A DNA stretch of 19,746 nucleotides. Origin: a virus (lineage: Duplodnaviria; Heunggongvirae; Uroviricota; Caudoviricetes). The stretch spans positions 1 through 19,746 of the IMG/VR virus record IMGVR_UViG_2671180921_000033, one strand, 5' to 3'. The notes beneath the pieces were generated by a model, which did no database searches, was not told the origin of the DNA, and saw nothing but the letters and a program-made list of their open reading frames with translations. Below, one piece after another: positions 1-14,715 of the stretch (the first letter of the stretch is position 1; each line of letters begins with the position of its first letter). A program made the translations under genes and the position numbers.

Positions 1-312
1 CAGCTCAATTTCATCCATATCGGGAAACTCTGTTTCATCCGGATGAAACTCAAAATCATGCATGAGCTCACGGTATCTTGCGGCCTGAGATTCACACAGC
101 AGCGCATTTCTTGCGGGACGAAGTGTGAGCGCGGTGAAAGCAACAATGATGACCACCAGCCCCTGTAACGCGGTATTACCCACATCTGCCAGAGCAAGCC
201 CACCAGCCAGCGTCAGAATAAAATAAAGCAGATATTCCAGCCTTCGGTACAGGGTCGCCATCATCGTTTCAAGATGAAAGGAATAGCGAACGTCAAACGA
301 CACATTACGCAT
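1..312 (-). CDS. Hypothetical protein, N-terminal 104 codons only (runs off the left edge); hydrophobic stretch suggests a membrane protein
   Basis: ATG at 312 on the minus strand with no stop through position 1. Translation begins MRNVSFDVRYSFHLETMMATLYRRLEYLLYFILTLAGGLALADV. Not in the ORF track because it is truncated. No family recognised. Confidence 0.4.
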   Translation of the reverse strand, partial: MRNVSFDVRYSFHLETMMATLYRRLEYLLYFILTLAGGLALADVGNTALQGLVVIIVAFTALTLRPARNALLCESQAARYRELMHDFEFHPDETEFPDMDEIEL

Positions 313-345
313 TGCGAATAACCTACATAAACGGTAATTGCGGAA

Positions 346-371
346 ACAAAAAAGGCCCGCCGAAGCGAGCC
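346..371 (-). terminator. Rho-independent terminator closing the tRNA operon
   Basis: Minus strand reads GGCTCGC-TTCG-GCGGGCC followed by TTTTTTGTTT, directly downstream of the tRNA-Gly 3' end. Confidence 0.5.
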
Positions 372-383
372 TGATGATAAATC

Positions 384-458
<75 letters not shown>

Positions 459-461
459 ATA

Positions 462-537
<76 letters not shown>

Positions 538-603
538 GTTGGTTCCTCGGGTGTGAGTGAGATGCCCGGACGCGTAATTTGCCCTTCCCTCGGAACCGCA
601 GAG

Positions 604-631
604 ATAATACAAATAAATAACAAGAATTCAA
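604..631 (-). promoter_or_regulatory. Candidate sigma70 promoter for the tRNA-Thr/tRNA-Gly operon
   Basis: Minus strand TTGAAT - 16 nt - TATTAT with an AT-rich upstream tract, about 60 nt upstream of the tRNA-Thr 5' end. Confidence 0.4.
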
Positions 632-727
632 TATTTGCTTATTCGTCTGTCGAAAAAGCCAGCAAGCTGAAAGACCGGTATTCGCAACCACCAGCGCGTT
701 TAATGTTCTGTGCTGTTTTTCGGGCAC

Positions 728-748
728 AAAAAACCCGCCAGTGGCGGG
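728..748 (-). terminator. Rho-independent terminator downstream of the MazF-like gene
   Basis: Minus strand hairpin CCCGCCACTGGCGGG followed by TTTTTT. Confidence 0.45.
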
Positions 749-771
749 GATCTTTTGATAAAAACGACAAA

Positions 772-793
772 GGCACCATCAAGGTGCCTTTTA
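772..793. terminator. Second hairpin terminator, bidirectional-looking
   Basis: GGCACC-ATCAA-GGTGCC followed by TTTTAC on plus; on minus the same hairpin is followed by TTTGTCGTTTTT. Confidence 0.35.
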
Positions 794-931
794 CACAGGG
801 GCAGCAGGCTTGTCATCACCTTATTGCTACTCCTGGCTTCCTGTTCGGAAGTCTCACAAGTCCCATCAGGGTACAGCGACAGTATCAGTCAACACACTAT
901 GTGTGTCAATATAAATTCATATCGAATTCGA

Positions 932-1333
932 TTATCGATACAGATAAGCCATCCCTATCCCGTGCAATACCGCCCGTTTAATATTCTCAAACTCATCTTC
1001 CGCGATCATAGGAACAATATAATTTCGCCCTTCCCAGGTTCTGGTTTTTATGCGATCCAGTCGGCTCAATGAAACCGTCATCAACATGTCACATTTTACC
1101 CAACAAGTAATATGCTCATTACCAGGAATGGGGTTTTCTGATAACTCATGATGGCAATCTCTGCGAGGGATCGGTTCAGTAGTGCTTATTGGTACCACTG
1201 TTACCAATTGATTGTTGTGTCTGTTTCTGGACACGACTACCACTGGCCTGACCTTGACTATTTCAGGAACAACCATTCCCCGAAAATCACACATTAAAAC
1301 AGAACGAACAGACGGCTGATACTTTAACACCAT
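932..1333 (-). CDS. MazF/PemK-like toxin (putative endoribonuclease), apparently without an adjacent antitoxin gene
   Basis: Translation from ATG at 1333: MVLKYQPSVRSVLMCDFRGMVVPEIVKVRPVVVVSRNRHNNQLVTVVPISTTEP... The pattern (RP-hydrophobic-VVS, NN, VVPITT) is typical of the MazF/PemK/Kid fold. The ORF-track version starts 26 codons upstream at a GTG. Confidence 0.5.
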   Translation of the reverse strand: MVLKYQPSVRSVLMCDFRGMVVPEIVKVRPVVVVSRNRHNNQLVTVVPISTTEPIPRRDCHHELSENPIPGNEHITCWVKCDMLMTVSLSRLDRIKTRTWEGRNYIVPMIAEDEFENIKRAVLHGIGMAYLYR

Positions 1334-1436
1334 AAATCTCTTTGCCTGATAATGACGACTTGTGAACTCCACTACAAACAAAATGATTCTGCTGAACAGG
1401 CAGTTCCGCACTGTGCATTATAACCTGTTAAGCCAA

Positions 1437-1460
1437 CAAAAAAACCCGCTCGGCGGCGGG
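1437..1460 (-). terminator. Rho-independent terminator after the ORF6N antirepressor-like gene
   Basis: Minus strand CCCGC-CGCCGA-GCGGG followed by TTTTTTTG. Confidence 0.55.
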
Positions 1461-1538
1461 TTTAAGCTGTGTGGCGTAGTAACCACTCTTAACAGGATAT
1501 TCAACTTTTTACGATCGTAAAGCGTTCAGGAAAAATTT

Positions 1539-2099
1539 TTAAAGCCGCATCAGTCGTTCCACCAGCTGATCTTTACGGGCAACGATCCAGCCGCGTTGTT
1601 CCAGATAAAATTTGAACCGTTCCAGAGTGCATACCATCGCATCGGCGGGCACTTTTTCCGCGAAGTCGACCTGACCGTGTTTATCGAAGTGGATCAGTAA
1701 TGCGCATCCATCATTTTCGGTGGGGGAGCTTTGTTTTGCTGGTGGCTGTTTCTGGCTGAAATAACAGTCTTCCAGTTTTTCGAACACTTCCCATGCCTGA
1801 TCGGTTTCGAGCATTTTGGCGTGGCGTGCTGCGCCTCGTTCTGTCCAGAGGACGAGGGAGCGGGCGCGTTTTGCAACTGACTTACTATCTGTAAGCCTGT
1901 TCTTGAATTCTCTTAGCTCCGTACCTTCGATTTTAAAAAAATGCTTACCTTCAATAAACCGCTCCCGATTCCGGGTATGGTTCACCTGAATATTTATAGC
2001 CTCAGTACCATATAGCTGAGCAAGTAGTTCGGTAGTGATAACGGGGATCTGGTTGTGGGTGATTGCAGGAAGAGTGTTGACAGAAATTTGAACAGTCAT
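1539..2099 (-). CDS. Phage antirepressor-like protein, ORF6N/KilA-N-type N-terminal domain plus a C-terminal domain shared with the Rha protein at 14908..15462
   Basis: N-terminus PVITTELLAQLYGTEAINIQVNHTRNRERFIEGKHFFKIEGTELREFKN matches the ORF6N-domain pattern. C-terminus LLIHFDKHGQVDFAEKVPADAMVCTLERFKFYLEQRGWIV parallels LVVHFDEHGNIRFTETVPDGALVCTLDTFRFYLEKQGWTLV in the Rha ORF. SD GAGGTCG precedes the ATG. Confidence 0.75.
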   Translation of the reverse strand: MTVQISVNTLPAITHNQIPVITTELLAQLYGTEAINIQVNHTRNRERFIEGKHFFKIEGTELREFKNRLTDSKSVAKRARSLVLWTERGAARHAKMLETDQAWEVFEKLEDCYFSQKQPPAKQSSPTENDGCALLIHFDKHGQVDFAEKVPADAMVCTLERFKFYLEQRGWIVARKDQLVERLMRL

Positions 2100-2260
2100 A
2101 ACGACCTCGCGTTTCGATAATTTTTACCTCACCACCGTCAGGTTCCAATCATCGGGTGGCGAACTGTGCAGGGTTGGAACTACCGGTCGAAACATCCGGC
2201 GCACCTTTCGGTGCCCCCACACAGTCCACCATAAATCGCGAATGTGACTGTGCTTAGCGC

Positions 2261-2283
2261 ATAAAAAAACCGCCAGCGCGGTT
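2261..2283 (-). terminator. tR'-like intrinsic terminator downstream of the late promoter
   Basis: Minus strand AACCGC-GCTG-GCGGTT followed by TTTTTTTA, about 75 nt downstream of the candidate PR' start. Confidence 0.6.
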
Positions 2284-2343
2284 ATGCACCGTTTCGATAT
2301 CCGGGGTTCCAATCCCGACGCCAGATTTTGCTGACGCGTGAGG

Positions 2344-2373
2344 AATATAGCCCCGGACAATGTGTCTGGTCAA
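2344..2373 (-). promoter_or_regulatory. PR'-like late promoter (candidate Q-utilisation region) immediately downstream of the Q gene
   Basis: Minus strand TTGACC - 17 nt - CTATAT starts 5 nt after the Q stop codon. The position is as in lambdoid PR'/qut/tR' modules. Confidence 0.45.
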
Positions 2374-2377
2374 GCAC

Positions 2378-2764
2378 CTACATAATTCGTTCTACGTATC
2401 TGTCCATCTCCAGCCGGATATCAAGCATCATCAACATGCCATCGATAACCCCTTCCGCTTTCTGCAGGCGCTTGCCAATACAGGTATCCGAACACCCATG
2501 CTTTCGTGCCAGTCCCATAAAAGTCATTCCACCTACGTAATAATCCACCAACAAATCGTGCAAATCCTGATTTTTCTTGTTCAACCGGGCCATACAGCCA
2601 CAAATTATCATTGCATCATTATCAGAACACTGAGGACGTGATTTCACTTTCGGCGGGATTAATCCTTTAAAACCAGCAGCGATTGACGCCCATGACACAT
2701 CTTCGTGGTTGTTTGCAGCCCATGCCCCCCACCGCTCCATCACCTGCTGAATATCACGCACCAT
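2378..2764 (-). CDS. Late-gene antiterminator Q (phage antitermination protein Q family)
   Basis: Translation [61 protein letters not shown]...DIRLEMD closely resembles, from memory, the Q homologues of E. coli cryptic prophages (QuuD-type). ATG at 2764; the ORF-track version starts at the GTG at 2773. Confidence 0.75.
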
Positions 2765-3131
2765 CGTTATCACCTGTAATTTCGTAAACCTTCACACCCA
2801 GCCGACCACCAGGAACGACCTGACCGCGCACTATATTGATTTCATCAAACTGCTCGTCGTCTATGAGTAGTCCTGCATGGGTCAGTGCATCCAGTGGTGC
2901 TTTCAACAGATTGTCCAGGTCACGACGGCGCTTATCCGGTGGCTCCACAATCATCTTTATCGCCAGCCTTCCGGACAGGTTTAATTTCAGCCACTGCTGG
3001 CGAACAATTAGCGCCACATCACGGCGATAACGCTTTCCTGCTTCCGAGATGAAATACGTATTGCCATGACGTCGCCAGTAGGTATTCACCGTCGGCGGGT
3101 AAGGCAAAACAAATTCTATGCGTTCAGTCAT
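2754..3131 (-). CDS. rusA: RusA Holliday-junction resolvase
   Basis: Translation [43 protein letters not shown]...[29 protein letters not shown] carries the RusA hallmark motifs (PP-NxYx[11 protein letters not shown]). Its start abuts the DUF968 stop. Confidence 0.8.
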
Positions 3132-4187
3132 TCATGCTTTCCACTTCAGGACACCCGAATTTCTCGCGTGCATTAAAAAACGAATCAGCAACAACAGCTG
3201 GCTGCCGTGTTTTTCTTCAAAATCTTTTACCCCGGCGTGCAGTTCGTTATGACATTTACGGCACAGCGGAATAACAAACAAATCATCAGCCTTTGTTCCC
3301 ATCCCTCCCAGTCCATGACCAATGATGTGATGCGGATCATCTGCCTGATTACCGCACGTCATGCATTTCTGCGTTTTTACCCAGCGCGTGTATACAGGCA
3401 TCTCTTCCCGTTGTGGTTTCTGGCGCTGGAGATACTGAGCCGGAGAATCCGGATCAACGGCAATGCTGACCACCGTCTTTTCCTGTGGCGGGTTTTGCTG
3501 GTGGGCGTGAGGCAGCGGCGCAAGATTTTTTGTGCGCTGCTTCAGTATGCTGGTGGCTGTCTGTTCTCCCGGTATGATGTCGCTTTCGCGGTACACCGAG
3601 CGGATTTTTTCCGCACGCAATCCCAGCGAACGACGCAATACCGCTTCCGGTAGCGCGTCCGCCACCTGATTGCGGACCGCCCACCAGGATAATTCAGCCA
3701 GAGATAATTCACGCTCCTGCGTACCGCTTATTGCGTGACCGATGACGTCAATCATCCATGCTGACAGGTTTTGATGAGCAAGTTGCTCGAGTGATTCGGC
3801 TGTCTGGTCACGCAACTGGTTGTCGCAGTGCCAGCACAACACCATCGCGCCGGTACCGTAACGATGTATGACGGTTTCGCTGTGGTGATAATCGCCGTGT
3901 GGCCACTGGCAGGATTTAATATGGCGCAACAGCCAGTCAGACAATGCGCCAGCGCCGCCAGCAGCACGAATCACCCGTGCGTTACTGAAAAACGGCAGCA
4001 ATGTTTTGTCTTCCACCAGTGGCTGGCGAACGGCGGGAACGACCCCGGACGGCAGATTACGCATGCTTTTCGGTTCAGGCTCCACCAGCACACGCCCCTG
4101 CATAAACAAAGGCATCGCATCAGGACCGGGCCTGAAAAGTACAATCCCCAGGCGGTGAGCAATTTCAGGAGTCACTAATACCCTCAC
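3132..4187 (-). CDS. DUF968-like prophage protein with a C-terminal HNH-like Cys/His motif
   Basis: 351 codons with a GTG start preceded by SD GGAGG. C-terminal CMTCGNQADDPHHIIGHGLGGMGTKADDLFVIPLCRKCHNELH. Size and position next to Q resemble YdfU-type prophage genes, as far as I recall. Confidence 0.55.
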   Translation of the reverse strand: MRVLVTPEIAHRLGIVLFRPGPDAMPLFMQGRVLVEPEPKSMRNLPSGVVPAVRQPLVEDKTLLPFFSNARVIRAAGGAGALSDWLLRHIKSCQWPHGDYHHSETVIHRYGTGAMVLCWHCDNQLRDQTAESLEQLAHQNLSAWMIDVIGHAISGTQERELSLAELSWWAVRNQVADALPEAVLRRSLGLRAEKIRSVYRESDIIPGEQTATSILKQRTKNLAPLPHAHQQNPPQEKTVVSIAVDPDSPAQYLQRQKPQREEMPVYTRWVKTQKCMTCGNQADDPHHIIGHGLGGMGTKADDLFVIPLCRKCHNELHAGVKDFEEKHGSQLLLLIRFLMHARNSGVLKWKA

Positions 4188-4188
4188 G

Positions 4189-4467
4189 TTACCTCCAGAT
4201 CCGTTGCTGGAATGTGCGGGACGGACGCGGTGGGCGCTCGGAGTACGGCAGCCTGACGGAGATTATCCAGTGTCGGAAGTCAAGACTGAGGTCTTTCCTG
4301 ACCTCGCGTCCGCGCCTGCGATAACACTGAATCAGCCACTCGGCCTGTTCTTCAGTGCATGGTGGGTGTTGGTACCAGTCGGTTTTAAATGCGTGAAAAC
4401 GCCGTCCGTGCATGCTGGCAAAGACGGCTGAATTATCAGGATTGTGTAGTCTGGAATTTTGCGCCAT
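4189..4467 (-). CDS. Hypothetical nin-region protein (92 aa)
   Basis: Intact ORF, co-oriented with and separated by 1 nt from the DUF968 gene. No family recognised. Confidence 0.4.
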   Translation of the reverse strand: MAQNSRLHNPDNSAVFASMHGRRFHAFKTDWYQHPPCTEEQAEWLIQCYRRRGREVRKDLSLDFRHWIISVRLPYSERPPRPSRTFQQRIWR

Positions 4468-4587
4468 CGGTTGTCTCTGCTGGCGCAGCAGGTGCCAGTT
4501 GTTCAGACTGGCGTGACAGATTATAACTCATAAAGAATAAAAATGACAAAATCTGCCAAAAAATAAAAATACGAAAAACAAGTTCTG

Positions 4588-4920
4588 TTACGACACCTTC
4601 CTGAAAATTGCCAGCGGTGTCATACCATAGGAAGTTCCTCTCCTCCCAATCATTTCCCGAATACCTTCAAGCATATAATCTATTGCAGATCTGATTTCGT
4701 TAGAAGGAATTTCTGGCTCTGAAACAGTCTCGTCACTTATATCCGGGAGCGCATCTATAACACCGATGACATACCATTCACCACGTATTCTTGAACCATA
4801 CTTTAATGCAAGATTTCCCACATCCAAAGCTAAATCATCAGCCTTGACCGACATCCAGAATATATTTTCTTGATCATCAAGAAGCTCTATCTGTGTAGAG
4901 AACGGGAGTAAAGAAAACAT
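4588..4920 (-). CDS. Hypothetical protein (110 aa), third gene of an AT-rich 3-gene cassette
   Basis: ORF starts 13 nt after the stop of the upstream gene. Acidic protein (MFSLLPFSTQIELLDDQENIFWMSVKADDLALDVGNL...). No family recognised. Confidence 0.5.
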   Translation of the reverse strand: MFSLLPFSTQIELLDDQENIFWMSVKADDLALDVGNLALKYGSRIRGEWYVIGVIDALPDISDETVSEPEIPSNEIRSAIDYMLEGIREMIGRRGTSYGMTPLAIFRKVS

Positions 4921-4933
4921 GTTAGCAGCAATT

Positions 4934-5416
4934 TTAGTATGATAAATTTCTTCTTGAATGTTTTTTTTTCTGATTTGGTGATTTAGTCTGCTTTAGCTCT
5001 TTTCGTTTTGCATCTTTATACATAGGAAAAACATCATGAGCCATTTTCACATCAAATAATTTGATATGCCCTTTTACCATCACCAGACTTCCAATTTCTG
5101 CATTTTCTAAGCTCGTTGCCACCAAGCCTTGTTCGTGCAACTTATCAAAAAAATTTAATGGTAAAGACCATGATGAGTCAAAATGCCGCTCTTGCGTTCT
5201 TGCAAAAGAATCACCCGCATTTTTCCTGGCATTAAATAATGAAACGCCACCTTTAAGTTCATTTAATGAATGCTCAGAACTGGACGAGATTTGTTTTACA
5301 GCATTCAATACTCCCGATGGAAATAATTGCGCAGTGAAGTAACCTACGCGCTCTTTGTCAAGATAAAGGTAATCAAATAGTGAATCTACAGCTTGACAAT
5401 CTTGATCCATTGGCAT
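4934..5416 (-). CDS. Hypothetical protein (about 160 aa), second gene of the AT-rich 3-gene cassette
   Basis: Start ATGCCAATGG preceded by SD AAAGAGGTG, overlapping the upstream small ORF by 44 nt. Lys-rich C-terminal tail. No family recognised. Confidence 0.5.
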   Translation of the reverse strand: MPMDQDCQAVDSLFDYLYLDKERVGYFTAQLFPSGVLNAVKQISSSSEHSLNELKGGVSLFNARKNAGDSFARTQERHFDSSWSLPLNFFDKLHEQGLVATSLENAEIGSLVMVKGHIKLFDVKMAHDVFPMYKDAKRKELKQTKSPNQKKKHSRRNLSY

Positions 5417-5552
5417 GCACCTCTTTGATCCTTGCTTTTTCCTCAGCAATTTTTCTTTGCTTTTCTTCGATTTCATCATACATCAATTGCATTTCAGCGA
5501 TGTCGAACGGCTTTGAACCACTTTTAAGCGATCTCACCAGTTTGCGGATCAT
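5373..5552 (-). CDS. Small hypothetical protein (59 aa), first gene of the AT-rich 3-gene cassette
   Basis: ATG at 5552 preceded by SD AGAGGGGA. Translation MIRKLVRSLKSGSKPFDIAEMQLMYDEIEEKQRKIAEEKARIKEV. Below the ORF-track length cutoff. Confidence 0.35.
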   Translation of the reverse strand: MIRKLVRSLKSGSKPFDIAEMQLMYDEIEEKQRKIAEEKARIKEVHANGSRLSSCRFTI

Positions 5553-5692
5553 TGCGTATCCCCTCTTAAATATCGTTCAAATTATGTTCAAACAAATTCT
5601 CAAACACAACAATGTGATACATCAATGTTTGGGTGCGTTGAGGATGCCTGACACATCAGAGGTGGCGAGGGATTTCTCCCCCGCCAGGTCTC

Positions 5693-5848
5693 TTACTCCT
5701 CAGGTTCGTAAGCTGTGAAGACAGCGACCTCCGTCTGGCCGGTTCGGATTCGTACCTCGCAGAGGTCTTTCCTCGTTACCAGTGCCGTCACAATGACGGT
5801 TAAACAGATGACGATCAGGGCGATTAACATCGCCTTTTGCTGCTTCAT
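5693..5848 (-). CDS. hok: Hok/Gef-family type I toxin
   Basis: Translation MKQQKAMLIALIVICLTVIVTALVTRKDLCEVRIRTGQTEVAVFTAYEPEE (51 aa) has the Hok signature: TM helix then RK-LCE-R-G-EVAAF. SD AAGGAGAAG precedes the ATG. Confidence 0.8.
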   Translation of the reverse strand: MKQQKAMLIALIVICLTVIVTALVTRKDLCEVRIRTGQTEVAVFTAYEPEE

Positions 5849-5894
5849 AGCCTGCTTCTCCTTGCCTTTCGGCACGTAAGAGGCTAACATCCAT
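5700..5894 (-). CDS. mok-like overlapping reading frame (translational coupler for hok)
   Basis: 64-codon frame starting at ATG 5894 and overlapping hok almost entirely, as in hok/mok/sok loci. Start choice within the 107-codon ORF-track frame is uncertain. Confidence 0.35.
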   Translation of the reverse strand: MDVSLLRAERQGEAGYEAAKGDVNRPDRHLFNRHCDGTGNEERPLRGTNPNRPDGGRCLHSLRT

Positions 5895-5965
5895 ATGTCT
5901 AGCATGAAATTGGCCTAAGTTTAATATTAAACGTCTTGCGGGACGCGTAATGTTAACTGGGCTTT
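5895..5965 (+). ncRNA. Possible Sok-like antisense RNA (approximate coordinates)
   Basis: Candidate plus-strand promoter TTGCCT - 17 nt - TAACAT (5862..5890) facing into the hok/mok leader. Ends not defined; inferred from hok/sok architecture. Confidence 0.2.
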
Positions 5966-6245
5966 TCTCTATCTGCCGTTGGTGTTCATGCCCGAGGCAG
6001 ATAGCCTCAAGCACACGCAGCAATTTTACTTAACTATTTTTCCGAAAAATTAATTATTACTAATGCATAGTTTATAAATCACACGATGATATTATAAATC
6101 TAGTGTAAGGGAACATTTAAGTTAAGAATCACATTTTACTAGCCAAAAACATAAAACAGATCTCTTAATAATAAGCAGCTTTTATATAAAAACCACGATG
6201 TGTTTTCATAATAATATGCAGTACCAGCTACTCAGCAATATGAGG

Positions 6246-6764
6246 TTATTCAGTCAAGCTTTTGCGCCCGTACGCACTTCTCAAACTTGCACATGTTTCT
6301 CTAATCCTAACAATTTGCATACAATCAGGTCTTAGAGGTCGGTTGTGAACATCACTATCATATGTCATGGCTTGGCGTAATTCCTTAAACAATTTTGCCT
6401 TATATTTTTCACCACCGGCCCTTTCAATTTCTTTAGCGATAGTAGTTAAACTCTTAACCTCCCTACTCATTTTTGCTAACGCCAGTGTAGGTTCTTTATT
6501 ATTATCTTCAGCCCAGAACTCTAAGGCAAAATCCTCAAGCAACTCCAGTTTTTGTCTAAACTCACCGATCCATTCATTATGAGCATCTTTAATAGCATCT
6601 CCTCTACTTTTTGTGGTTTGGAGATAAGCAATATATGCCGTAATCCCCCATCCAACTAAAACTAAAAACCAAGTTACATACTGATTTTCATCTTTAAACA
6701 AAGAAAAAAACTTACACCAAAAGTCTGCACTCCAAGTACAGACCTGGATACTTGAATTAGCCAT
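6246..6764 (-). CDS. Single-pass membrane protein (172 aa), fourth gene of the STAS/GHKL cassette
   Basis: Hydrophobic helix WFLVLVGWGITAYIAYL near the N-terminus, followed by a charged helical region. Its start overlaps the upstream gene stop as ATGGCTAA. Confidence 0.55.
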   Translation of the reverse strand: MANSSIQVCTWSADFWCKFFSLFKDENQYVTWFLVLVGWGITAYIAYLQTTKSRGDAIKDAHNEWIGEFRQKLELLEDFALEFWAEDNNKEPTLALAKMSREVKSLTTIAKEIERAGGEKYKAKLFKELRQAMTYDSDVHNRPLRPDCMQIVRIRETCASLRSAYGRKSLTE

Positions 6765-7071
6765 GAGATACCTTTATAGCGTCCTCGATATATTCATTTA
6801 TCTCGTCAATTAACTCAGGTTCTTCTTCTGAGATAAATTTAATCCCTTTAACCTTATCAGGACTCACGCCACGCCTAATCAATCCGCCAAAGCACTCCTC
6901 CAAGAAAGAAGAACCATACCCCTCCGTTCCATCAAGGTCTATTGTTAGATCTGGTGAATGTTTAAGCTCTCTTTCTACCCACTCACGAAACTCCTCACCA
7001 GAAGCGGGCCCCAATCTTTTAAAACGAGGTCCTGGGCAAGGATAACGACTGGCTACTTTTATAATTTTCAT
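6757..7071 (-). CDS. Small STAS-like (DUF4325-like) protein, 104 aa
   Basis: ATG at 7071, 1 nt after the GHKL gene stop. Segment DLTIDLDGTEGYGSSFLEECFGGLIRRG resembles the STAS-like core of anti-sigma-antagonist-type proteins. The domain call is by eye. Confidence 0.45.
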   Translation of the reverse strand: MKIIKVASRYPCPGPRFKRLGPASGEEFREWVERELKHSPDLTIDLDGTEGYGSSFLEECFGGLIRRGVSPDKVKGIKFISEEEPELIDEINEYIEDAIKVSHG

Positions 7072-7072
7072 A

Positions 7073-7552
7073 CTACTCAGTTTCCACCTCACAAGGAATT
7101 GTCCATTCAATTATAGTACCATTAACAGAGCTTTTGTAATCTCTAAGCACTTCGTTAATAATGCCAGTTTTCCCTTTGTAAATATAGCGCCCTTTTGATG
7201 AAAAAATCCCCATAAAACCATCACCTATTGAATCGATTACCGATTTGATATCATTCAAGCCTTTACCTCGGTTCAGCTCCCCAGTCCTCGTTTCCTGAAG
7301 TAACGTGGAAGCCTTTATATAAGTAGAATCCTTTACATTTGCTAATGGAACTCTAAGTTTTTTGAAGATGTTCATTAGCACACTTACACCTTGTGTTTTA
7401 GGCAATGTTGAAGGTATTCCCACTCCTTTATCACATATTACCACTGTAAGATTTTTGTCATGTATGCCAGCAAAGGTCCACCACTTAGCTGTTTCGTCAT
7501 CTTCCGTATGCATTAAATCATCAACATAAGCATGCTCGACAGAATTAGACAT
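7073..7552 (-). CDS. GHKL-family ATPase, anti-sigma-factor/serine-kinase-like (159 aa)
   Basis: Bergerat-fold motifs in order: N-box NSVEHAY, G1 VVICDKGVGIP, G2 RGKGLNDI, G3 NGTIIEW. Size similar to RsbW/SpoIIAB-type kinases. Confidence 0.65.
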   Translation of the reverse strand: MSNSVEHAYVDDLMHTEDDETAKWWTFAGIHDKNLTVVICDKGVGIPSTLPKTQGVSVLMNIFKKLRVPLANVKDSTYIKASTLLQETRTGELNRGKGLNDIKSVIDSIGDGFMGIFSSKGRYIYKGKTGIINEVLRDYKSSVNGTIIEWTIPCEVETE

Positions 7553-7556
7553 GGCC

Positions 7557-8240
7557 TCAGTAAAGCCACGGTATAATTTTTTTTGATGATTTTCTTTCTA
7601 ACTCTTTTTTTATTTCCACCATCATTTCTTTTGCTAAAAGAGGCTCAGAACAAGAACCTGATGTATATTTCCAAAAAGTCACATCATCATAACTTTCAGT
7701 TTCTCTTTTAGGTTTCCTTAATAGATCATAGAAACCGACTTGATTCAAAATGCTTTCAATTTTCTTGTCTTTCGGATGTGAAAACCCTATGGCATTTACT
7801 CCAAATTCACTTTTCTTAATAAGCACATCAACTTCAGCGAGAAAAGATAACATAGCAGCTGCACTTATATATTTAGTTGAAGAAAAATCTATATAAACAC
7901 GATTATTCTTCAACACGCAATCGCGTAAATTATTTAAAAATTTATTCATGATTTCAAAATCACGATCGTTGTAATAATTAATAGATATCGGAGCAGAAAA
8001 AACCACCCTTTTATTACTTGTTGTCAACTTTTTCTTCGAGACTCGTAGCTTACGAGTGCGTTTGTAATATTCCAGTTTTCTCTTCGCATTTTCTACTCCT
8101 TCCCAATCCGTGCTTTTCAGAGAATTAAATATCCCCCTCTTCAGTTTCGAAACTTGCCCGCGATAGTTTAGTTTTTGAACTTTTCTTCTTTTTTGCAGAT
8201 TCATAAATATTTTCACATTTGATAACATCGCAGATATCAT
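7557..8240 (-). CDS. Protein with a basic N-terminal region and a STAS-like domain (227 aa), first gene of the cassette
   Basis: Lys/Arg-rich N-terminus (KRRKVQKLNYRGQVSKLKRG...KRTRKLRVSKKKL), then RVYIDFSSTKYISAAAMLSFLAEVDVL...NAIGFSHPKDKKIESILNQVGFYDLL, which resembles a STAS/anti-sigma-antagonist fold. No clear SD, so the start is uncertain. Confidence 0.5.
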   Translation of the reverse strand: MISAMLSNVKIFMNLQKRRKVQKLNYRGQVSKLKRGIFNSLKSTDWEGVENAKRKLEYYKRTRKLRVSKKKLTTSNKRVVFSAPISINYYNDRDFEIMNKFLNNLRDCVLKNNRVYIDFSSTKYISAAAMLSFLAEVDVLIKKSEFGVNAIGFSHPKDKKIESILNQVGFYDLLRKPKRETESYDDVTFWKYTSGSCSEPLLAKEMMVEIKKELERKSSKKIIPWLY

Positions 8241-8476
8241 ATTTCACATGAAAAATTTTTTGTAGCCCCTCCATCAAAGAAAATCGCTGCCTTTATCAAA
8301 AACATTTCGAAATTGTCAGCAACTTAACGTTCCCCCACCCCAACAGTAAAATTGATCCCACTAGCTCAAGTGAAAGTCACCCCGTAACATCCTGTTGATA
8401 CCCAGCGCCTGCGCTTTCGCTCTTACAGCATAACAAGAACGATCGATCCCCCATATGCTTTCTACCGTCAACGTGC

Positions 8477-8938
8477 CTACACACTGACCTGAGTGCCATG
8501 ATTTCCCTCATGCATAACCTGTTCACCGAATACCTCTCGAAAACCATTCTGGTAAAACGCCAGTACGCGCTGCATAGCTTCGCTCCTCCGACACTCGCGA
8601 CAGATTATGTTCAGACGCCTGTCATAGCGGCGTATTTCTCCGTCTGGTAATGAATAAACCAGGTCCGGGTCGCTCTTTTTTTTCACTGCTGCTTTCGACA
8701 TCTTTTTGCGGGCCTTTATCCAGTCCTTACGTGCCTGTTCAGACGGAAATAACCCGTAGCCGGAGTTGTATAAATCGCCACTGGCAACCAGCTCTCTGGC
8801 AAGAACACTCATCAGATACCTTGTCGCACCTGTCTTAGCTTCCAGTTGTCGTAACGTCTCGCGCCCACTCTGGCGCACGAGCTCAACAACCTTCCCCTTA
8901 ATTTTTTCCCGCTCTTCTTGTGTAAATACTTTTGCCAT
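8477..8938 (-). CDS. Hypothetical nin-region phage protein (154 aa)
   Basis: ATG at 8938 preceded by SD GGAGG. Co-oriented with the replication genes. No family recognised. Confidence 0.5.
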   Translation of the reverse strand: MAKVFTQEEREKIKGKVVELVRQSGRETLRQLEAKTGATRYLMSVLARELVASGDLYNSGYGLFPSEQARKDWIKARKKMSKAAVKKKSDPDLVYSLPDGEIRRYDRRLNIICRECRRSEAMQRVLAFYQNGFREVFGEQVMHEGNHGTQVSV

Positions 8939-8953
8939 AAGCGCCTCCGGCAA

Positions 8954-9715
8954 TCACTTTTCCGATGCAACATGGCGGGAAGAATCAGTAATCTGTCGTA
9001 CAATATCCCTGTGCTTGTTCAACTCACGCAGCGCGGCGCAGACACGCTCCCACTTCTGGACATGATTTTTCGCCCGACGCAGTTCGCGGTTTGCCATATG
9101 CAGTGATGGTAAAACCAGGTCATCCGCTCGCGTTTCAGTAAACGATGGCAGCGACTGCACAATGTCCGCCACAGTTTCTGTTTTAATATCTTCCTGTGTT
9201 GCAGCCTCCTGTACTGGTAACGCAACACCTGCGGGCTGAGGAAAGGCCTTACCATCAGTTTCCGCTACCGATGCTGCTTTCGGCTCTGCTGGTAAATTAT
9301 CGCCCGGTATGCAGTAACGAAATTTACCGCCCTGATTTACGCGAATCAGACGACCTTTGCTGATTGCCATTGCCAACGTTGAAGCCACTTTGCGTGATGT
9401 GGTACCAAAAAATGTAGCCAGCTCATCCGCCGTTTGTGGTCCACGTTGTTCAATCGTCGCAGTTAAATCGCTCTCTGAAATTTTCGCGACTGTTGCCGTG
9501 GTAGTTTCTTCCGGCAGTTCTGCCGGCGCTGGCTGTTCCTGCTGAACGTTGTTATCAGCCACACGCCAGGTGTACGCGCTTTTATCAACGAAACCAGCCT
9601 TTTTCAGTTCCCATAGTTCGTTCAGCACTTCTTCACGACTGATATCAAGTCGCGCAGCAAGTTCTATGGATGTGGCTTTTCCCATCGCTTTCAGTGCGTC
9701 AAAAACAGTCTCCAT
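8954..9715 (-). CDS. Hypothetical phage protein, possibly a winged-helix DNA-binding protein (253 aa)
   Basis: ATG at 9715 preceded by SD GGGAGG. Two segments ([26 protein letters not shown] and [29 protein letters not shown]) look like HTH/winged-helix units. Confidence 0.5.
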
Positions 9716-9737
9716 TAAAATTTCCTCCCGGTAAAAA

Positions 9738-10484
9738 TCACTTCGCAATTCCTGGCTGGACGACATTCGGACGCCAGCTCTCCCAGTTAAAATTCACCCA
9801 TCGCCCGCCGTTCATGGTCATGCGGTCCATCACTCGCTCTCCCAGAAGGGTGCTCATCGCGGTATGGTTCAGGTTCGTCAGCATCCCGACACTGCGCATC
9901 GAAGCCGTTCTGCGGTCGACTATCTGGTTCAGAGTGACCTGTTCATTGCGTGTATCACGCTGCATGCCAATCTCATCCAGAACCAGCAGGTCAACGTTGC
10001 ACAATCCCTGCAAAAACTTTTCACCCGAGTTTTTGTTGTCGTAGCTGCCGTGCAACGCCAGCATCACATCAGCCACAGTGATCACAATCACACTCCGCCC
10101 CTTCGCCAGAAGATGGTTGCCGATGGCTGCCGCAAGGTGATTTTTTCCGGTACCCGGCTTACCGCTGAACACGAAATTTGTGCACCTGGTCATAAGTTCG
10201 TCCGCGATGGATTTTGCATGACTCAGCGCGTGGCGTTGCCCGTCGTTCTGCACCCGGTAATTCGCAAACGAACACTTCTGGTGCAACGGCTGGATACCCG
10301 AACGGTTCAGAATTTTTTCCGCATGAATCTTGTTATTCAGGCGATTAATCTCCTCACTACGTTTTCGCCCTTCAGCAAGCCACCACTCGTACCACTCTTC
10401 CCGTGTCCGGTACGGCGCGGTTACATGCTGTGGGGCCAGTCTGCGGATACGTTCAAGAACACCGCTTGCCGCAATATTTTTCAT
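9738..10484 (-). CDS. DnaC-like helicase loader (IstB-like AAA+ ATPase), lambda P equivalent
   Basis: Walker [18 protein letters not shown] and Walker [10 protein letters not shown]. Position immediately downstream of the O-like initiator. Confidence 0.85.
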
Positions 10485-10490
10485 GGTCAG

Positions 10491-11456
10491 TTACCCCCTG
10501 AAGCCTGGCGGAATTTCGGTATCCGGTTCAGAAATGTGATTCACACAACGCTGTGCCGGACCACGTCCCAGACGAATCACCAGCTCATCCCATTTTTCGC
10601 GGAGCTTTGACGGACTCATGATGTTTTTTACCCAGAATGAATCCCGCTGTACCCGACCAAACATTTCGCAAATTTGCCTGTGCGTTCTGCCATCCAGCAT
10701 CCGCATTGTGCGCACGTCATTGGCCCACGCGGTCCAGTTGGGTTCTTTCGGACGCGCGATCTCACCATCATCGCTGGCGGCCTGCTCGTAAAGACTCACG
10801 ATTCGTCCCCAGATCCACTGCGCACACGCCAAATCTTCCTGGCTGCCCCACTGGCGTTTTTTCGCACTGAACACAACCGCGTCAGGGTGTCGGGTTAAAA
10901 AATCCTGTTCAGCCGTCTGCGGGTCCGGTTGCGAAGCGTCCGGACGAGAAGTGTTTTTATTCTCTGTAGTAATCTCTGTTGTATTCTCTGTAAGATCATC
11001 GGGCCATTTTGACCCGATGACATTGGGTCGTTTTGAACCAATGGAGCGTGTCATTTTGGCCTCTTCCATCGTGTCATTTTGACCTGATGGAGCGGCGCAT
11101 TTTGACCTGATGGATTCGCTCGCTTTGCCACCATCTAAAAGCTCGCTCTCGTAATTAATCGTGTAAAAATTAGTCATGTCACGCTTTGATTTATTGAGCT
11201 TTTCGCAACGCAAAAGCCCCAGCGTTTTCAGACTTGCAAATGCGCGTTTTAACGTTGACTCTGACCAGAACGGGAACTGTTCCAGCCATTGTTCCGTTGT
11301 GTTATAAATCCAGCGAACACCGTCACACTCCATGCCGGAATTGGTATCTCTCAACCAGTAATGCAGCTGCTGCAACACGATGGCTTCGTTCAGACCTATT
11401 TTCATCGCCAGCTGCGTGTTTATAACCAGCGGGCGTTCAGCAAAAAGGAGCTTCAT
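10491..11456 (-). CDS. Replication initiator / replisome organiser (lambda O equivalent)
   Basis: N-terminal winged-helix-like segment LNEAIVLQQLHYWLRDTNSG, strong SD GGGGGAAGGG, and an internal iteron array (11001..11115) as in lambda O/ori. Confidence 0.7.
   Translation of the reverse strand: MKLLFAERPLVINTQLAMKIGLNEAIVLQQLHYWLRDTNSGMECDGVRWIYNTTEQWLEQFPFWSESTLKRAFASLKTLGLLRCEKLNKSKRDMTNFYTINYESELLDGGKASESIRSKCAAPSGQNDTMEEAKMTRSIGSKRPNVIGSKWPDDLTENTTEITTENKNTSRPDASQPDPQTAEQDFLTRHPDAVVFSAKKRQWGSQEDLACAQWIWGRIVSLYEQAASDDGEIARPKEPNWTAWANDVRTMRMLDGRTHRQICEMFGRVQRDSFWVKNIMSPSKLREKWDELVIRLGRGPAQRCVNHISEPDTEIPPGFRG
11001..11115. repeat. Iteron array (candidate phage origin) inside the O-like gene
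   Basis: Five copies of CATTTTGACC(C/T)GATGG-like repeats (two degenerate) spaced about 23-24 bp apart from 11005 to 11112, with shorter CTCTGT direct repeats just left of them. Confidence 0.55.
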
Positions 11457-11477
11457 CCCTTCCCCCGGAACACGTTA

Positions 11478-11903
11478 TCAATGCACCACCACGGCATTTC
11501 CTGCCGGACCACCGCGATTCATCTGGTCGAACAGAACGATCGCTGATGCAACGAACTCATCGATATCTTTCACCAGCCGATCCCGTCGCTCGACAATCTC
11601 CCGGTGATACTCCGAACTGTGACTGCGCATTCGGGCCACCAGCGGTGGCGGCATTGCCTTTTCGATCGCTGGTAACAACGCCTGAATTTTTTTAACCGCA
11701 TCAGGGGTGTCTTTCTCCACCCAGCGGAAAATCTTCTGAGTATTGCGAGCCAGGGCTTCTGGGTGTGAATCGTCGTACAGTTCCGGAAACGTCATTCCCA
11801 GCTCAAAATACGCTTTGGTAATCTCTGCAGCCGGAACTTTCTCGCCGTCCGGATGCGCCCAGGCATTCATCGCCATGCGGATGTGTTCATGCTTGATTTT
11901 CAT
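11478..11903 (-). CDS. YdaT-like prophage protein (CII-position gene)
   Basis: Begins MKIKHEHI and ends VVVH, as I recall for Rac YdaT. Start overlaps the upstream gene stop as ATGA. SD GGGAG. Confidence 0.5.
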   Translation of the reverse strand: MKIKHEHIRMAMNAWAHPDGEKVPAAEITKAYFELGMTFPELYDDSHPEALARNTQKIFRWVEKDTPDAVKKIQALLPAIEKAMPPPLVARMRSHSSEYHREIVERRDRLVKDIDEFVASAIVLFDQMNRGGPAGNAVVVH

Positions 11904-12160
11904 GAATCAACTCCCGCAGCTGGTTGTGTGTTAGCCTTAAACTCAGAAGGCAAGCCGTCGGTTGGGTTAGGATAAATATCTGGGCGGATTTCATGCGGGG
12001 TAACTTCCCACTTCATTAGTTGGCATAACGGAATTACCTGCTTTGGGGGAACGCCAAAGCTAAACCATTGCCAAACAGTCTGTTGAGCGACCCCCATATA
12101 ACGACCTATTTCAGCCTGAGTGTATTTCTGCCTAATTTTTTCGCGAGTGCTATCTAGCAT
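11900..12160 (-). CDS. Cro-like / YdaS-like HTH regulator
   Basis: HTH-like segment YTQAEIGRYMGVAQQTVWQWF. Divergent from the repressor gene across the operator region. SD GAGGAGGG. Confidence 0.6.
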   Translation of the reverse strand: MLDSTREKIRQKYTQAEIGRYMGVAQQTVWQWFSFGVPPKQVIPLCQLMKWEVTPHEIRPDIYPNPTDGLPSEFKANTQPAAGVDS

Positions 12161-12196
12161 TTTGCCCTCCTCTAAAAACTATAAGCAAAGCCTACA

Positions 12197-12229
12197 ATAA
12201 AAAACTGTATACGATCAACAGTTTTTTAT
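12197..12229. promoter_or_regulatory. Operator-like inverted repeat in the divergent promoter region
   Basis: Perfect 12-bp arms ATAAAAAACTGT - 9 bp - ACAGTTTTTTAT between the Cro-like and repressor genes. Confidence 0.5.
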
Positions 12230-12268
12230 TGTGATGCTTTTAACAGTATTTACCTGTAAAATTGAATA

Positions 12269-12670
12269 ATGATGAGCGCCCTAGAAGTATCTATGTACAG
12301 AATCAGCAAGCTTCTTCAGGAAACTGGATGGAGCCAGGCTGAGCTTGCCCGTAGAATTGGTGTGACACAACAAACTGTTCAACAATGGGTCAGCGGTAAG
12401 GCTACACCTAAAGCCTCAAGTTTGGATAAACTGGTTGAGGTTTCAGGGCATCCATTGCATTGGTTTTTATTGCCTCCTGAAGAGGGTGAGCAAATTTTCA
12501 CCCCTGACACGATGAAAATTGGTCCTCGCCAACGCGAACTGCTCCAAGCTTTTAGTGCGTTTCCTGAGGAAGACCAAGAAAAAATGCTTCAAGAAATCAA
12601 AGACAAGAAAAAATCAATGGAAGAAACCATTGCTCGGTGGCTGGCTGCACAAAAAAGCCGCCGGGCGTGA
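12269..12670 (+). CDS. XRE-family HTH repressor (PaaR-like; candidate prophage repressor)
   Basis: HTH segment WSQAELARRIGVTQQTVQQWVSGK. First gene of an operon with the antitoxin and toxin below. Start could be the ATG at 12269 or at 12293. Confidence 0.7.
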   Translation: MMSALEVSMYRISKLLQETGWSQAELARRIGVTQQTVQQWVSGKATPKASSLDKLVEVSGHPLHWFLLPPEEGEQIFTPDTMKIGPRQRELLQAFSAFPEEDQEKMLQEIKDKKKSMEETIARWLAAQKSRRA

Positions 12671-12697
12671 CCACAGTACAAGAAGAGGAGTTATGCC

Positions 12698-12889
12698 ATG
12701 GGTACAGCCCTTTCTCCGATAGTTTCAGAATTCGAAACTACCGAACAAGAAAACAGTTACAACGAATGGTTGCGCACTAAAGTAACGTCAAGCCTTGCAG
12801 GCACTCGCCCCGCAATTCCACATGACGAGGTAATGGCTGAAATGGAAAATCTTATTGCTCAAATTGCTGTAACTAACAGGAGCGAGTAA
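12698..12889 (+). CDS. PaaA2-like antitoxin
   Basis: 63 aa, MGTALSPIVSEFETTEQENSYNEWLRTKVTSSLAGTRPAIPHDEV; strong SD AAGAGGAG. Resembles, from memory, the PaaA2 antitoxin of E. coli three-component ParE systems. Confidence 0.65.
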   Translation: MGTALSPIVSEFETTEQENSYNEWLRTKVTSSLAGTRPAIPHDEVMAEMENLIAQIAVTNRSE

Positions 12890-13176
12890 TGTTACCCATT
12901 TTATGGCTACCGTCTGCTCGCGATGATTTGCGTCAGATCATAACTTACATCGCCAAGGAGAACCCACCGGCAGCACGTAGACTAAAAATACGCATTGAAA
13001 CATCGGTATTACCTCTATCTGAGCATCCGTACTTATATCCACCAAGCGAACGGGTTTCTGGATTGAGAGAGATCGTGACCCACCCTAACTACATAATCCT
13101 GTACAGAGTAGCTGCTTCAAGCATTGAGATTGTAAGCGTGACACATTCTCGGCGACAATTTCCCTTCTCTATCTGA
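12889..13176 (+). CDS. ParE/RelE-family toxin
   Basis: 95 aa, MLPILWLPSARDDLRQIITYIAKENPPAARRL...REIVTHPNYIILYRV. Its start overlaps the antitoxin stop by 1 nt (TAATG). Confidence 0.8.
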   Translation: MLPILWLPSARDDLRQIITYIAKENPPAARRLKIRIETSVLPLSEHPYLYPPSERVSGLREIVTHPNYIILYRVAASSIEIVSVTHSRRQFPFSI

Positions 13177-13194
13177 GTTGAACAATTTTCATAC

Positions 13195-13219
13195 TCCCTC
13201 TTTCGAGGGATTTTTTTTT
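13195..13219 (+). terminator. Rho-independent terminator of the repressor-antitoxin-toxin operon
   Basis: TCCCTC-TTTC-GAGGGA followed by nine T residues. Confidence 0.65.
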
Positions 13220-13233
13220 GCCCAAAACAACAA

Positions 13234-13272
13234 TTAAAAACTGTTGACATAAAACAGTTTTTAATTGTAGAT
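13234..13272 (+). promoter_or_regulatory. Second operator-like inverted repeat overlapping a candidate PL-like promoter
   Basis: Perfect 11-bp arms TTAAAAACTGT - 9 bp - ACAGTTTTTAA. TTGACA at 13244..13249 lies inside the repeat, with a weak -10 (GTAGAT/TAGATT) 17-18 nt downstream. Confidence 0.5.
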
Positions 13273-13455
13273 TACATACACCAACCACCCACCCCGCCCC
13301 ACAGAATGTCGGGCAATACTTCGAGTTACCCGGCAGTGGTCAGGGGTTAAGTAGCCAGCCCGAGGCGTAAGAACATGACGGCAGGGTTCAACTTTAATAA
13401 CTATGCAGCAGGTTTTTGTTCCGCTACCCCGGCGTTAAGGGGAAATGAGGTCAGC

Positions 13456-13611
13456 ATGGATACTATCGATCTTGGCAACAGCGAATCTCTGGTATGTGGC
13501 GTGTTCCCCAACCAAGACGGTACGTTCACCGCGATGACGTATACCAAAAGCAAAACGTTTAAAACCGAAGCTGGCGCGCGTCGTTGGGTGGCAAGACATT
13601 CAGGTGAATAA
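13456..13611 (+). CDS. Small early-left protein (51 aa)
   Basis: ATG at 13456 preceded by SD-like AGGGGAAATGAGG. Translation MDTIDLGNSESLVCGVFPNQDGTFTAMTYTKSKTFKTEAGARRWVARHSGE. The ORF-track version is a 78-codon extension. Confidence 0.4.
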   Translation: MDTIDLGNSESLVCGVFPNQDGTFTAMTYTKSKTFKTEAGARRWVARHSGE

Positions 13612-13612
13612 A

Positions 13613-13759
13613 ATGAACGAAACAGAATTAAAACACGTTATCGCTCTACTTCTGGAGGATACAAAACGCCTCCAGCAACTGGAACCAAATGCAGGCACTG
13701 AAGCCCGCATCTTGCTGGCATTGCGCGCTATTGAGTCAGGTCGTGATGATGAAGGTTAA
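13613..13759 (+). CDS. Small early-left protein (48 aa)
   Basis: ATG 2 nt after the previous stop. Translation MNETELKHVIALLLEDTKRLQQLEPNAGTEARILLALRAIESGRDDEG. Below the ORF-track cutoff. Confidence 0.3.
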   Translation: MNETELKHVIALLLEDTKRLQQLEPNAGTEARILLALRAIESGRDDEG

Positions 13760-14655: not shown

Positions 14656-14715
14656 GCATCCGCACCTCATAAAACGGGTGTCGGGCGTGGAAACCCGATG
14701 TTCACTAACGCGCAT

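Follow-up and report, generated by a model that had tools for sequence, protein, structure and literature searches.

A conserved structured RNA beside a MazF/PemK-fold toxin gene of a Rac/lambdoid prophage is probably its antitoxin

MazF proteins are the textbook type II toxins and are always pictured with a protein antitoxin; ToxN and CptN have folds related to those of Kid and MazF. The window analysed here is the whole 19,746-nucleotide (nt) stretch of the IMG/VR virus record IMGVR_UViG_2671180921_000033 (Caudoviricetes, positions 1 to 19,746), and it carries on its minus strand a gene (1333..932) for a MazF/PemK-family protein, which an initial annotation made from the sequence alone had described as a solitary toxin. 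However, a conserved structured RNA with its own promoter (874..762) follows the gene here and in 92% of the homologues analysed, so the orphan label fails, and this RNA is probably the missing antitoxin of the toxin.

The type II systems MazEF and PemIK (Kid-Kis) share with this locus the Pfam family PF02452, the fold, and the positions of the catalytic Arg and Ser/Thr residues, and the fold matches found with Foldseek include the MazF proteins of S. aureus, B. subtilis, M. tuberculosis and E. coli. The difference lies in the partner, since no MazE/PemI-type gene was found upstream or nearby, either here or in the homologues, and a downstream structured RNA is present instead. Because an adjacent protein antitoxin was sought and not found, the locus is not regarded as type II. 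The type III systems (ToxIN, CptIN and TenpIN, and also AvcID) resemble it in combining a protein toxin with an adjacent non-coding RNA, in their association with mobile elements and in having a terminator within the architecture, and an abortive-infection role is plausible for a toxin-RNA module of this kind. However, the toxin is a bona fide PF02452 member and not a ToxN/AbiQ, CptN or TenpN protein, and its upstream terminator is preceded by the gene of an ORF6N protein, not by type III repeats. A type III-style repeat array was rejected because Tandem Repeats Finder detected no tandem repeats in positions 1..3200 of the window. We describe the locus as type III-like in its presumed working, and do not file it as ToxIN, CptIN or TenpIN.

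Among type I systems, those with non-overlapping small RNAs (tisB/istR-1 and zor/orz) and the hok/sok fold-back are similar in that the toxin gene has a neighbouring small RNA gene under a promoter of its own, and in one clade only of the present family the likeness extends to a 12-nt complementarity in the leader, near the ribosome-binding site. Type I toxins, however, are usually small hydrophobic peptides, and leader complementarity is not family-wide here. MazF-mx of Myxococcus xanthus is controlled by the protein MrpC, which is encoded elsewhere. MazF-mx is mentioned as a solitary MazF homologue without an adjacent antitoxin gene (PMC2701414). It is the nearest precedent for a partnerless MazF, and at the present locus the conserved adjacent RNA is the candidate partner. 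Full-text searches of the literature outside subscription-only papers turned up no account of this RNA or of any RNA partner for PemK/YifN-type proteins.

The cassette comprises the following features.

1442..1463, minus strand: intrinsic terminator that bounds the cassette on its upstream side, 108 nt before the ATG (terminator scan).
1334..1441, minus strand: 5' leader of the toxin gene, read from the sequence and partly conserved in enteric homologues.
932..1333, minus strand: gene for a MazF/PemK-fold protein, putative endoribonuclease toxin (Pfam, AlphaFold model and aligned catalytic residues).
881..909, minus strand: promoter of the RNA gene, with -35 TTGACA at 909..904, a 17-nt spacer and -10 GATACT at 886..881; 10/12 consensus matches (promoter scan).
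762..874, minus strand: structured small RNA of 113 nt (covariance model R1, covariation and folding).
860-874, minus strand: stem P1 of the RNA, CCC/GGG with stable tetraloops UGAU, GAAA or UUCG.
About 852-860, minus strand: conserved junction J1/2, CUUGUGAGAC.
837-851, minus strand: stem P2, variable in length.
796-835, minus strand: stem P3, which closes the near-invariant loop L3.
809-817, minus strand: loop L3, GAUGACAAG.
769-791, minus strand: stem P4, the terminator hairpin and the RNA's own 3' end.
762-771, minus strand: unusual conserved 3' tail UUUGUCGUUU, with the family form UUUGUC(A/G)UUU.
734..748, bidirectional: second terminator, downstream edge of the cassette, inside the block 648..1463 (terminator scan of both strands).

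The toxin gene is an open reading frame (ORF) with its ATG at 1333 and a stop codon that ends at 932, and its product of 133 amino acids (aa) begins with MVLKYQPSVRSVLMCDF. Its assignment to the MazF/PemK family, proposed earlier from the sequence pattern, was borne out by a significant Pfam match to PF02452 (PemK_toxin; residues 12-95, E = 6.1e-14, 52.6 bits against a gathering cut-off of 23.1), and the same domain was present in 111 of 111 toxin homologues. The uncharacterised phage family phrog_15698 matched the protein over its full length (E = 1.3e-47), and phrog_1936, a "MazF-like growth inhibitor", matched it more weakly. PADLOC gave no match for the protein, and a known defence system was rejected on this ground. 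A sequence search of the PDB with the single toxin sequence found no relative, and a 66-sequence toxin profile reached the MazF proteins of E. coli, M. tuberculosis and S. aureus marginally (E 0.02-0.5). In the profile alignment, R29 of the toxin falls on R29 of E. coli MazF and S50 on its T52. These are the two catalytic sites sought, an Arg at the end of the beta1-beta2 loop and a Thr/Ser in beta3-beta4, and MazF-bs and MazF-sth need the matching Arg/Thr pair for catalysis (PMC10893535).

An AlphaFold2 model built on the 66-sequence alignment had a mean local confidence (pLDDT) of 95.5 and a predicted template-modelling (TM) score of 0.89, and the top 50 Foldseek matches to it in the PDB were all MazF (TM 0.68-0.83, best E = 7.5e-8); modelling thus places the protein in the MazF/PemK family, with the MazF fold (an SH3-like barrel). 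Both R29 and S50 are invariant across the 66 members of the alignment, so inactivation, one of the options raised by the initial annotation, is unsupported; the catalytic machinery looks intact, and nuclease activity is predicted. Toxicity is something that we infer, not something observed. Homologues carry the JGI label "uncharacterized protein YifN (PemK superfamily)". The E. coli K-12 yifN gene (locus L156, 1513-1961), from which this COG name derives, is a distant, disrupted pseudogene without an R1-type RNA match nearby, and because the RNA is absent the K-12 locus is unusable as a model.

Alignment of the region downstream of the toxin gene across five genera revealed a non-coding block that is far better conserved than the coding sequence. 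In the window it falls in the 170 nt between the toxin stop codon and the "first terminator"; it starts with GUACCC at 874, about 58 nt past the stop, and comprises about 110 nt of conserved sequence. The stretch 750..931, where a search for a small RNA had been proposed, thus does contain the candidate partner RNA (874..762). The two terminators previously placed after the toxin gene are also there (791..769 and 748..734, minus-strand terminator scan), but the first is better read as the RNA's own intrinsic terminator, and only one lies further on.

The RNA of the window scored 100.9 bits against the covariance model R1 (E = 5e-19), and its fold (minimum free energy -43.9 kcal/mol, z = -4.27) has the same structure as the family. 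RNAalifold analysis of 32 diverse sequences gave four helices, with compensatory changes in 17 of the 26 pairs. In a model-based alignment of 90 copies, which was fitted to the model structure and therefore biases the pair counts towards it, 96.1% of the cells were in standard pairs, against 41-55% in controls whose pairing partners were slid by 1-3 columns, a control that is a partial remedy only for this bias. Double-sided changes occurred in 21 of 33 pairs, with 325 compensatory cells, and none of 500 shuffles attained the observed covariation values. A tertiary pairing between J1/2 and L3 is not claimed, since two loci (L039 and L059) alter J1/2 without compensation.

Nothing in Rfam 15 covered positions 796-874 of the window, even at E<=10. 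Sub-threshold overlaps were found only at the 3' terminators of the RNA (isrK, 18.3 bits against a gathering threshold of 50), nothing passed the gathering threshold in five diverse loci (Brevundimonas, Oxalobacteraceae and Enterobacter were among those checked), and a Pseudomonas locus (L024) gave terminator-like noise only. A known RNA family was therefore rejected for want of an Rfam 15 match, and the RNA appears to represent a new, well-supported family that is absent from that database.

A sigma-70-type promoter precedes the RNA at a fixed distance in every lineage, with about 6 nt between the end of its -10 box and the G of GUUCCC. It may overlap the last codons and the stop of the toxin gene, as in Brevundimonas (GGTTGCAA-N17-CATATCTAG). 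Scored by consensus matches, which are not measurements of activity, 76% of 86 distinct upstream regions reached at least 8/12, compared to 2% of random positions. The positional conservation of this promoter would be hard to explain without independent transcription, and on comparative sequence evidence we count the existence, the structure and the promoter of the RNA as shown here.

The linkage of the two genes was analysed in both directions. A scan of relatives with one genome per species (185,579 species genomes) gave 501 loci, 80 of which were fetched. An R1 RNA was found on the same strand, 1-101 nt past the toxin stop, in 73 of these 80 species-level loci, with scores of 46-103 bits. 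Of the seven loci without it, one lies on a contig that ends early, which leaves 73 of 79 usable loci (92%). The pair occurs in Alpha-, Beta-, Gamma- and Deltaproteobacteria and others, in genera that include Pseudomonas, Caulobacter/Brevundimonas, Neisseria, Haemophilus, Vogesella, Massilia, Cupriavidus and Geobacter, as well as in metagenome-assembled genomes of Anaerolineales and Saccharibacteria. All enteric and phage toxin copies examined carry the RNA, and no toxin copy without it was found in the Enterobacterales.

For the reverse direction, metagenome contigs were scanned with a two-motif pattern that skews the sample towards certain RNA subtypes. This gave 120 loci, of which 71 were confirmed by the model and 64 of those had at least 480 nt upstream; a toxin homologue lies directly upstream of 45 of the 64 (70%). 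The first-pass figure was 41%, but 49 of the 120 pattern matches were due to chance. Judged by these two counts, the linkage of RNA and toxin gene is tight both ways. A search of the isolated phage genomes of INPHARED gave no closely similar cassette or RNA, and a relative was found in distant Vibrio elements only. In one of these (Vibrio phage 10N.239.311.A09_PE001, L277, 2995-3673), a toxin homologue with 37% identity closes a 13.5-kb element and is preceded by cro-like and LexA-like genes, and the RNA match 134 nt downstream of it is weak (21.4 bits, E = 2.8e-4).

The toxin gene has been cleanly deleted, with the RNA kept, in at least nine E. coli genomes, with a microhomology junction at ATG. 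The deletion spares the RNA body and both cassette edges but takes the -35 box of the RNA; in E. coli S19-651 (L107, 2964-3075), for example, the equivalent of about 904-1385 of the window is removed. In some Pseudomonas loci a LysR gene is followed directly by the RNA, without the toxin. RNA without toxin occurs, whereas in the Enterobacterales no toxin without RNA was found, an asymmetry predicted by toxin-antitoxin logic.

An overlooked protein antitoxin was sought by checking the flanking ORFs of 20 aa or more, on either side, for conservation in the relatives. No conserved small protein ORF was found on either flank in the window or its relatives, and Pfam scans of 23 of the larger ORFs of the window detected no MazE/AbrB-type antitoxin domain, in agreement with the initial annotation that the gene has no small partner ORF on either side. 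The candidates rejected as protein antitoxins were a GTG-extended ORF of 159 aa and a 43-aa ORF (1418..1287), neither of which is conserved, and a micro-ORF inside the RNA ("MTSLLPL..."), whose frame and sense change between genera. The peptides "GACETLRIL" and "AMTS" downstream of distant homologues were also rejected as proteins, as they are translated RNA: the RNA motifs GGGnCUUGUGAGAC and AUGACAAGC read as "..GACETLRIL.." and "..AMTS.." in spurious ORFs. A similar case is a RefSeq 'hypothetical protein' of 66 aa (WP_134790173.1; L001, 3977-4174) that lies over part of the RNA and the downstream terminators and is most likely a spurious call. Gene calls at the Pseudomonas, Geobacter, Atlantibacter and enteric copies showed no adjacent small protein gene, and clustering of the ORFs at the homologue loci gave no recurring partner protein. 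Because the homologue loci also lack a partner protein, the missing protein antitoxin characterises the family as a whole and did not come about by chance in this one prophage.

The window as a whole is a Rac/lambdoid prophage of mosaic make-up that shares about 87% identity with E. coli prophages, and it has genes for a RecE-like exonuclease, a helix-turn-helix repressor, YdaS/YdaT, a ParE-family ORF, Hok/Gef, DUF968, RusA and a Q antiterminator. The features around the cassette are as follows.

2378..2773, minus strand: Q antiterminator gene.
2344..2373, minus strand: pR'-like late promoter-like site, directly downstream of the Q gene.
2268..2283, minus strand: terminator after the late promoter-like site.
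1539..2099, minus strand: ORF6N/Ant-like (anti-repressor-like) gene, between the Q late leader and the toxin cassette.
384..537, minus strand: tRNA-Thr and tRNA-Gly genes.

The order on the minus strand is thus Q, pR'-like promoter, terminator, ORF6N, terminator, toxin, terminators and tRNAs. Among 5,426 complete E. coli genomes, 24 contain the block 648..1463 at about 96% identity, and in each of them it follows shortly after a Q gene. Prophage homologues of Enterobacter, Klebsiella and Xenorhabdus (63-79% protein identity) occupy the same slot, from the late antiterminator to the holin, and the antiterminator beside enteric homologues is either of the Q type or of the P22 gp23 type. On this positional evidence, the cassette is a moron-like unit in the promoter-proximal part of a Q-dependent late operon. 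The terminator about 100 nt upstream of the gene (1463..1442) leaves no room for an upstream antitoxin, as had been noted before. It has a counterpart at the equivalent place in the cassettes of E. coli, Enterobacter, Klebsiella and Xenorhabdus, and it shields the toxin gene from transcription that comes from the ORF6N gene. The leader contains a perfect -10-like TATAAT (1422..1417) without a good -35, and the promoter scan called no minus-strand sigma-70 promoter in 1334..1441.

Other observations concern the same prophage. For the ORF6N gene (1539-2099), PADLOC gave weak matches (E about 1e-7) to PDC-S05, a candidate system, and related prophages (L003) have this gene and no toxin cassette. 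A Hok/Gef ORF (5693-5905, minus strand; PF01848, E = 2.9e-23) is a type I toxin gene, and a ParE-family toxin ORF (12889-13176, plus strand; PF05016, E = 2.9e-17) adjoins the immunity region. In 6246-7552 (minus strand), a DUF4325 (STAS-like) ORF at 6757-7110 lies between two ORFs without a Pfam match, and this segment of the early region could be an accessory or defence cassette.

The initial annotation had left three options open, an orphan toxin, an inactivated homologue, or a toxin with a trans-acting or RNA antitoxin. The evidence favours the RNA antitoxin, while the other two are unsupported. Our working picture is a module of two genes, a MazF-fold endoribonuclease (1333..932) followed by an RNA of about 113 nt (874..762) with its own promoter and terminator. 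The near-consensus promoter would supply the RNA in excess, and the toxin, with a weak leader promoter behind an insulating terminator, would be low in the lysogen. The RNA would block the nuclease, and the most likely way is direct binding to the protein in the manner of type III RNA antitoxins; we favour such type III-like action tentatively, as an analogy somewhat short of an even chance. The invariant single-stranded segments, namely L3 (GAUGACAAG), J1/2 (CUUGUGAGAC) and the tail UUUGUC(A/G)UUU, could form a recognition or pseudo-substrate surface. The L3 motif (G/A/U)ACAAG contains ACA, the triplet cleaved by E. coli MazF, and presumably resembles a 3' segment of 16S rRNA (UAACAAGG). If RNA synthesis were halted or the RNA degraded, as in phage host shut-off or loss of the element, the more stable toxin would be freed and would cut RNA. 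After induction, Q-modified polymerase would read late through the whole cassette, because the moron sits between Q and the tRNA/lysis region. Neutralisation by the RNA, direct binding and any role in defence are things that we infer.

More broadly, these loci may represent a new and widespread toxin-antitoxin class, in which MazF/PemK proteins are neutralised by a downstream, single-copy structured RNA acting as a pseudo-substrate or protein binder, and in which temperate phages use toxin plus RNA as a moron for exclusion or abortive infection and the RNA alone, made as part of the constitutive late-leader transcript, as counter-defence against the toxin of resident elements. We consider this possible and hold it with more reserve than direct binding itself.

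Several points weigh against the RNA being an antitoxin that works in this way. Type III antitoxins lie upstream of their toxins and mostly (ToxIN, CptIN and TenpIN) consist of tandem repeats processed by the toxin, whereas the RNA of this module is single-copy and downstream, with its own promoter, four helices and no repeats. The pairing of L3 with the tail (GAUGACA with UGUC(A/G)UU) is 90.5% satisfied and nearly invariant, and because of this invariance covariation neither backs nor refutes an L3-tail pseudoknot. The six R1-negative toxin loci form a sister subclade of the toxin in which the catalytic residues are kept. Finally, 30% of the metagenome RNA copies are without the toxin, as are copies in phage contigs, where the RNA stands in the late leader after an antiterminator gene or behind unrelated morons, and because the RNA occurs without the toxin it may have a function of its own. 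The sister subclade comprises loci of Alysiella and Kingella (L070 and L078) and of Pseudomonas (L075, L076, L079 and L083); in the Pseudomonas loci nothing but a plain terminator lies downstream.

The copies without the toxin fall into several contexts. In seven viral contigs (L122, L127, L128, L129, L141, L143 and L149) the RNA lies about 90-115 nt after a P22 gp23-type antiterminator gene, and in two further loci (L108 and L110, 2498-2610) it also follows such a gene; E. coli E9 and Z1323 carry late-leader copies of this kind, about 115 nt after the gp23-type gene. The promoter before the gp23-associated copies is pR'-like (TTGATT-N17-TATGCT), so the RNA of these phages would be a short constitutive late-leader transcript, and it could be an orphan antitoxin or a counter-defence RNA. 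Lambda 6S RNA and StxS of Stx phages are short constitutive pR'-tR' transcripts, and the RNA of the toxin-less phage contigs is similar to these lambdoid late-leader RNAs in lying between the late promoter and the first terminator. Unlike them, it is conserved far outside phages and regardless of antiterminator type, has its own promoter in the toxin cassettes and has no Rfam match.

Elsewhere the RNA stands behind other cargo genes (L145, L147, L153 and L154), which in L147, L153 and L154 are unrelated ORFs in a tail-gene cluster. In four metagenome contigs (L181, L211, L256 and L258) it directly follows the C-terminus of HigA/HI1420-like antidote genes, in place of the MazF-like gene, and in three others (L172, L204 and L254) the antidote-like ORF before it seems to break off at the RNA. 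A second RNA copy lies 3.8 kb downstream in an Oxalobacteraceae genome (L012, 8225-8349), with no toxin homologue within 700 nt upstream. E. coli A34 (L109, 2490-2598) has the RNA between a Panacea-domain gene and a ParDE pair, also with no toxin within 700 nt upstream; about 150 nt before this RNA lies a terminator that bears the UUUGUCAU tail as well.

These copies bear on the alternative that RNA and toxin have no functional link, the RNA being an independent RNA of mobile elements or phages (a late leader, terminator module or small RNA) and the toxin a cargo gene inserted upstream of it. This is in keeping with the RNA-only copies, which lie about 115 nt after gp23-type antiterminator genes (L122, L127, L149, L108 and L110), behind unrelated ORFs or after HigA-like genes, and with the near-identity, from the -10 box of the RNA onward, of a locus with the toxin (L132) and one without it (L127). 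We consider it unlikely, as it leaves unexplained why the RNA lies within 1-101 nt of 92% of the toxin homologues in several bacterial classes, why its promoters are embedded in the last codons of the toxin gene, and why enteric toxin copies are never without it.

Alternatively, the protein could be a dedicated binding or processing factor of the RNA, forming with it a ribonucleoprotein whose function is borne by the RNA, and not a growth-inhibiting toxin. The tight linkage in both directions would fit such a particle, as would the conserved chromosomal position of the Pseudomonas pair beside housekeeping-type genes, not only on mobile elements, and the conservation of RNA motifs well beyond the strict need of an antitoxin. 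However, the invariant catalytic residues are those of a general endoribonuclease family, and the repeated loss of the toxin while the RNA stays is the pattern expected of a harmful gene, which makes this explanation doubtful.

A type I-like mechanism, in which L3 pairs with the leader of the toxin mRNA beside the ribosome-binding site and blocks translation, is likewise improbable; a variant of it is a fold-back in cis between 5' and 3' ends, since transcription of the toxin gene continues into the RNA and ends at the same terminator. The leaders of Enterobacter and Klebsiella carry AUUGUCAUCACCA at -29..-14, which forms 12 contiguous base pairs with L3, a match for which our own estimate of the chance expectation is about 1e-3, and at the homologous position the leader of the window (GUCGUCAUUAUC, about 16-27 nt upstream of the ATG) keeps nine pairs, two of them G-U. 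The perfect 12-nt complement AUUGUCAUCACC was located at about 3972-3985 in L089 and about 2972-2984 in L101, and the weaker 9-bp site of the window at about 1349-1360. However, the pairing is absent in Xenorhabdus and Atlantibacter, and across 74 loci the complementarity of L3 to the initiation region had a median percentile of 0.74 against random windows of the same locus, with 3 of 74 below 0.05. Antisense pairing as a general rule was rejected for this lack of enrichment, and the pairing of L3 with the leader may be a lineage-specific extra layer. Because antisense pairing is not a feature of the family, protein binding by the RNA would be the simplest common mechanism.

That the toxin is a true orphan, silenced by terminators and a weak promoter and expressed by Q-dependent late transcription in a doomed host in which an antitoxin is needless, would suit the enteric homologues, which lie behind a terminator, with the late antiterminator gene immediately before them and the lysis genes after them, and a leader without a called sigma-70 promoter, but it ignores the conserved RNA and the many chromosomal homologues without a phage context and is very unlikely.

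"Orphan" MazF/PemK genes are routinely annotated as type II and left unexplained, and the RNA is sometimes hidden under a spurious "hypothetical protein". If the RNA is the antitoxin, the YifN-type subfamily, with relatives in about 500 of 185,579 species genomes in one scan, would be re-filed as RNA-controlled. The system would then link type II toxins with the logic of type III systems and contribute a new structured RNA family, and it would give a concrete explanation for solitary MazF genes in prophages, while the phages that carry the RNA alone would look like users of molecular-mimicry anti-defence elements. A routine "orphan toxin" annotation would thus become a defined and testable toxin-RNA module.

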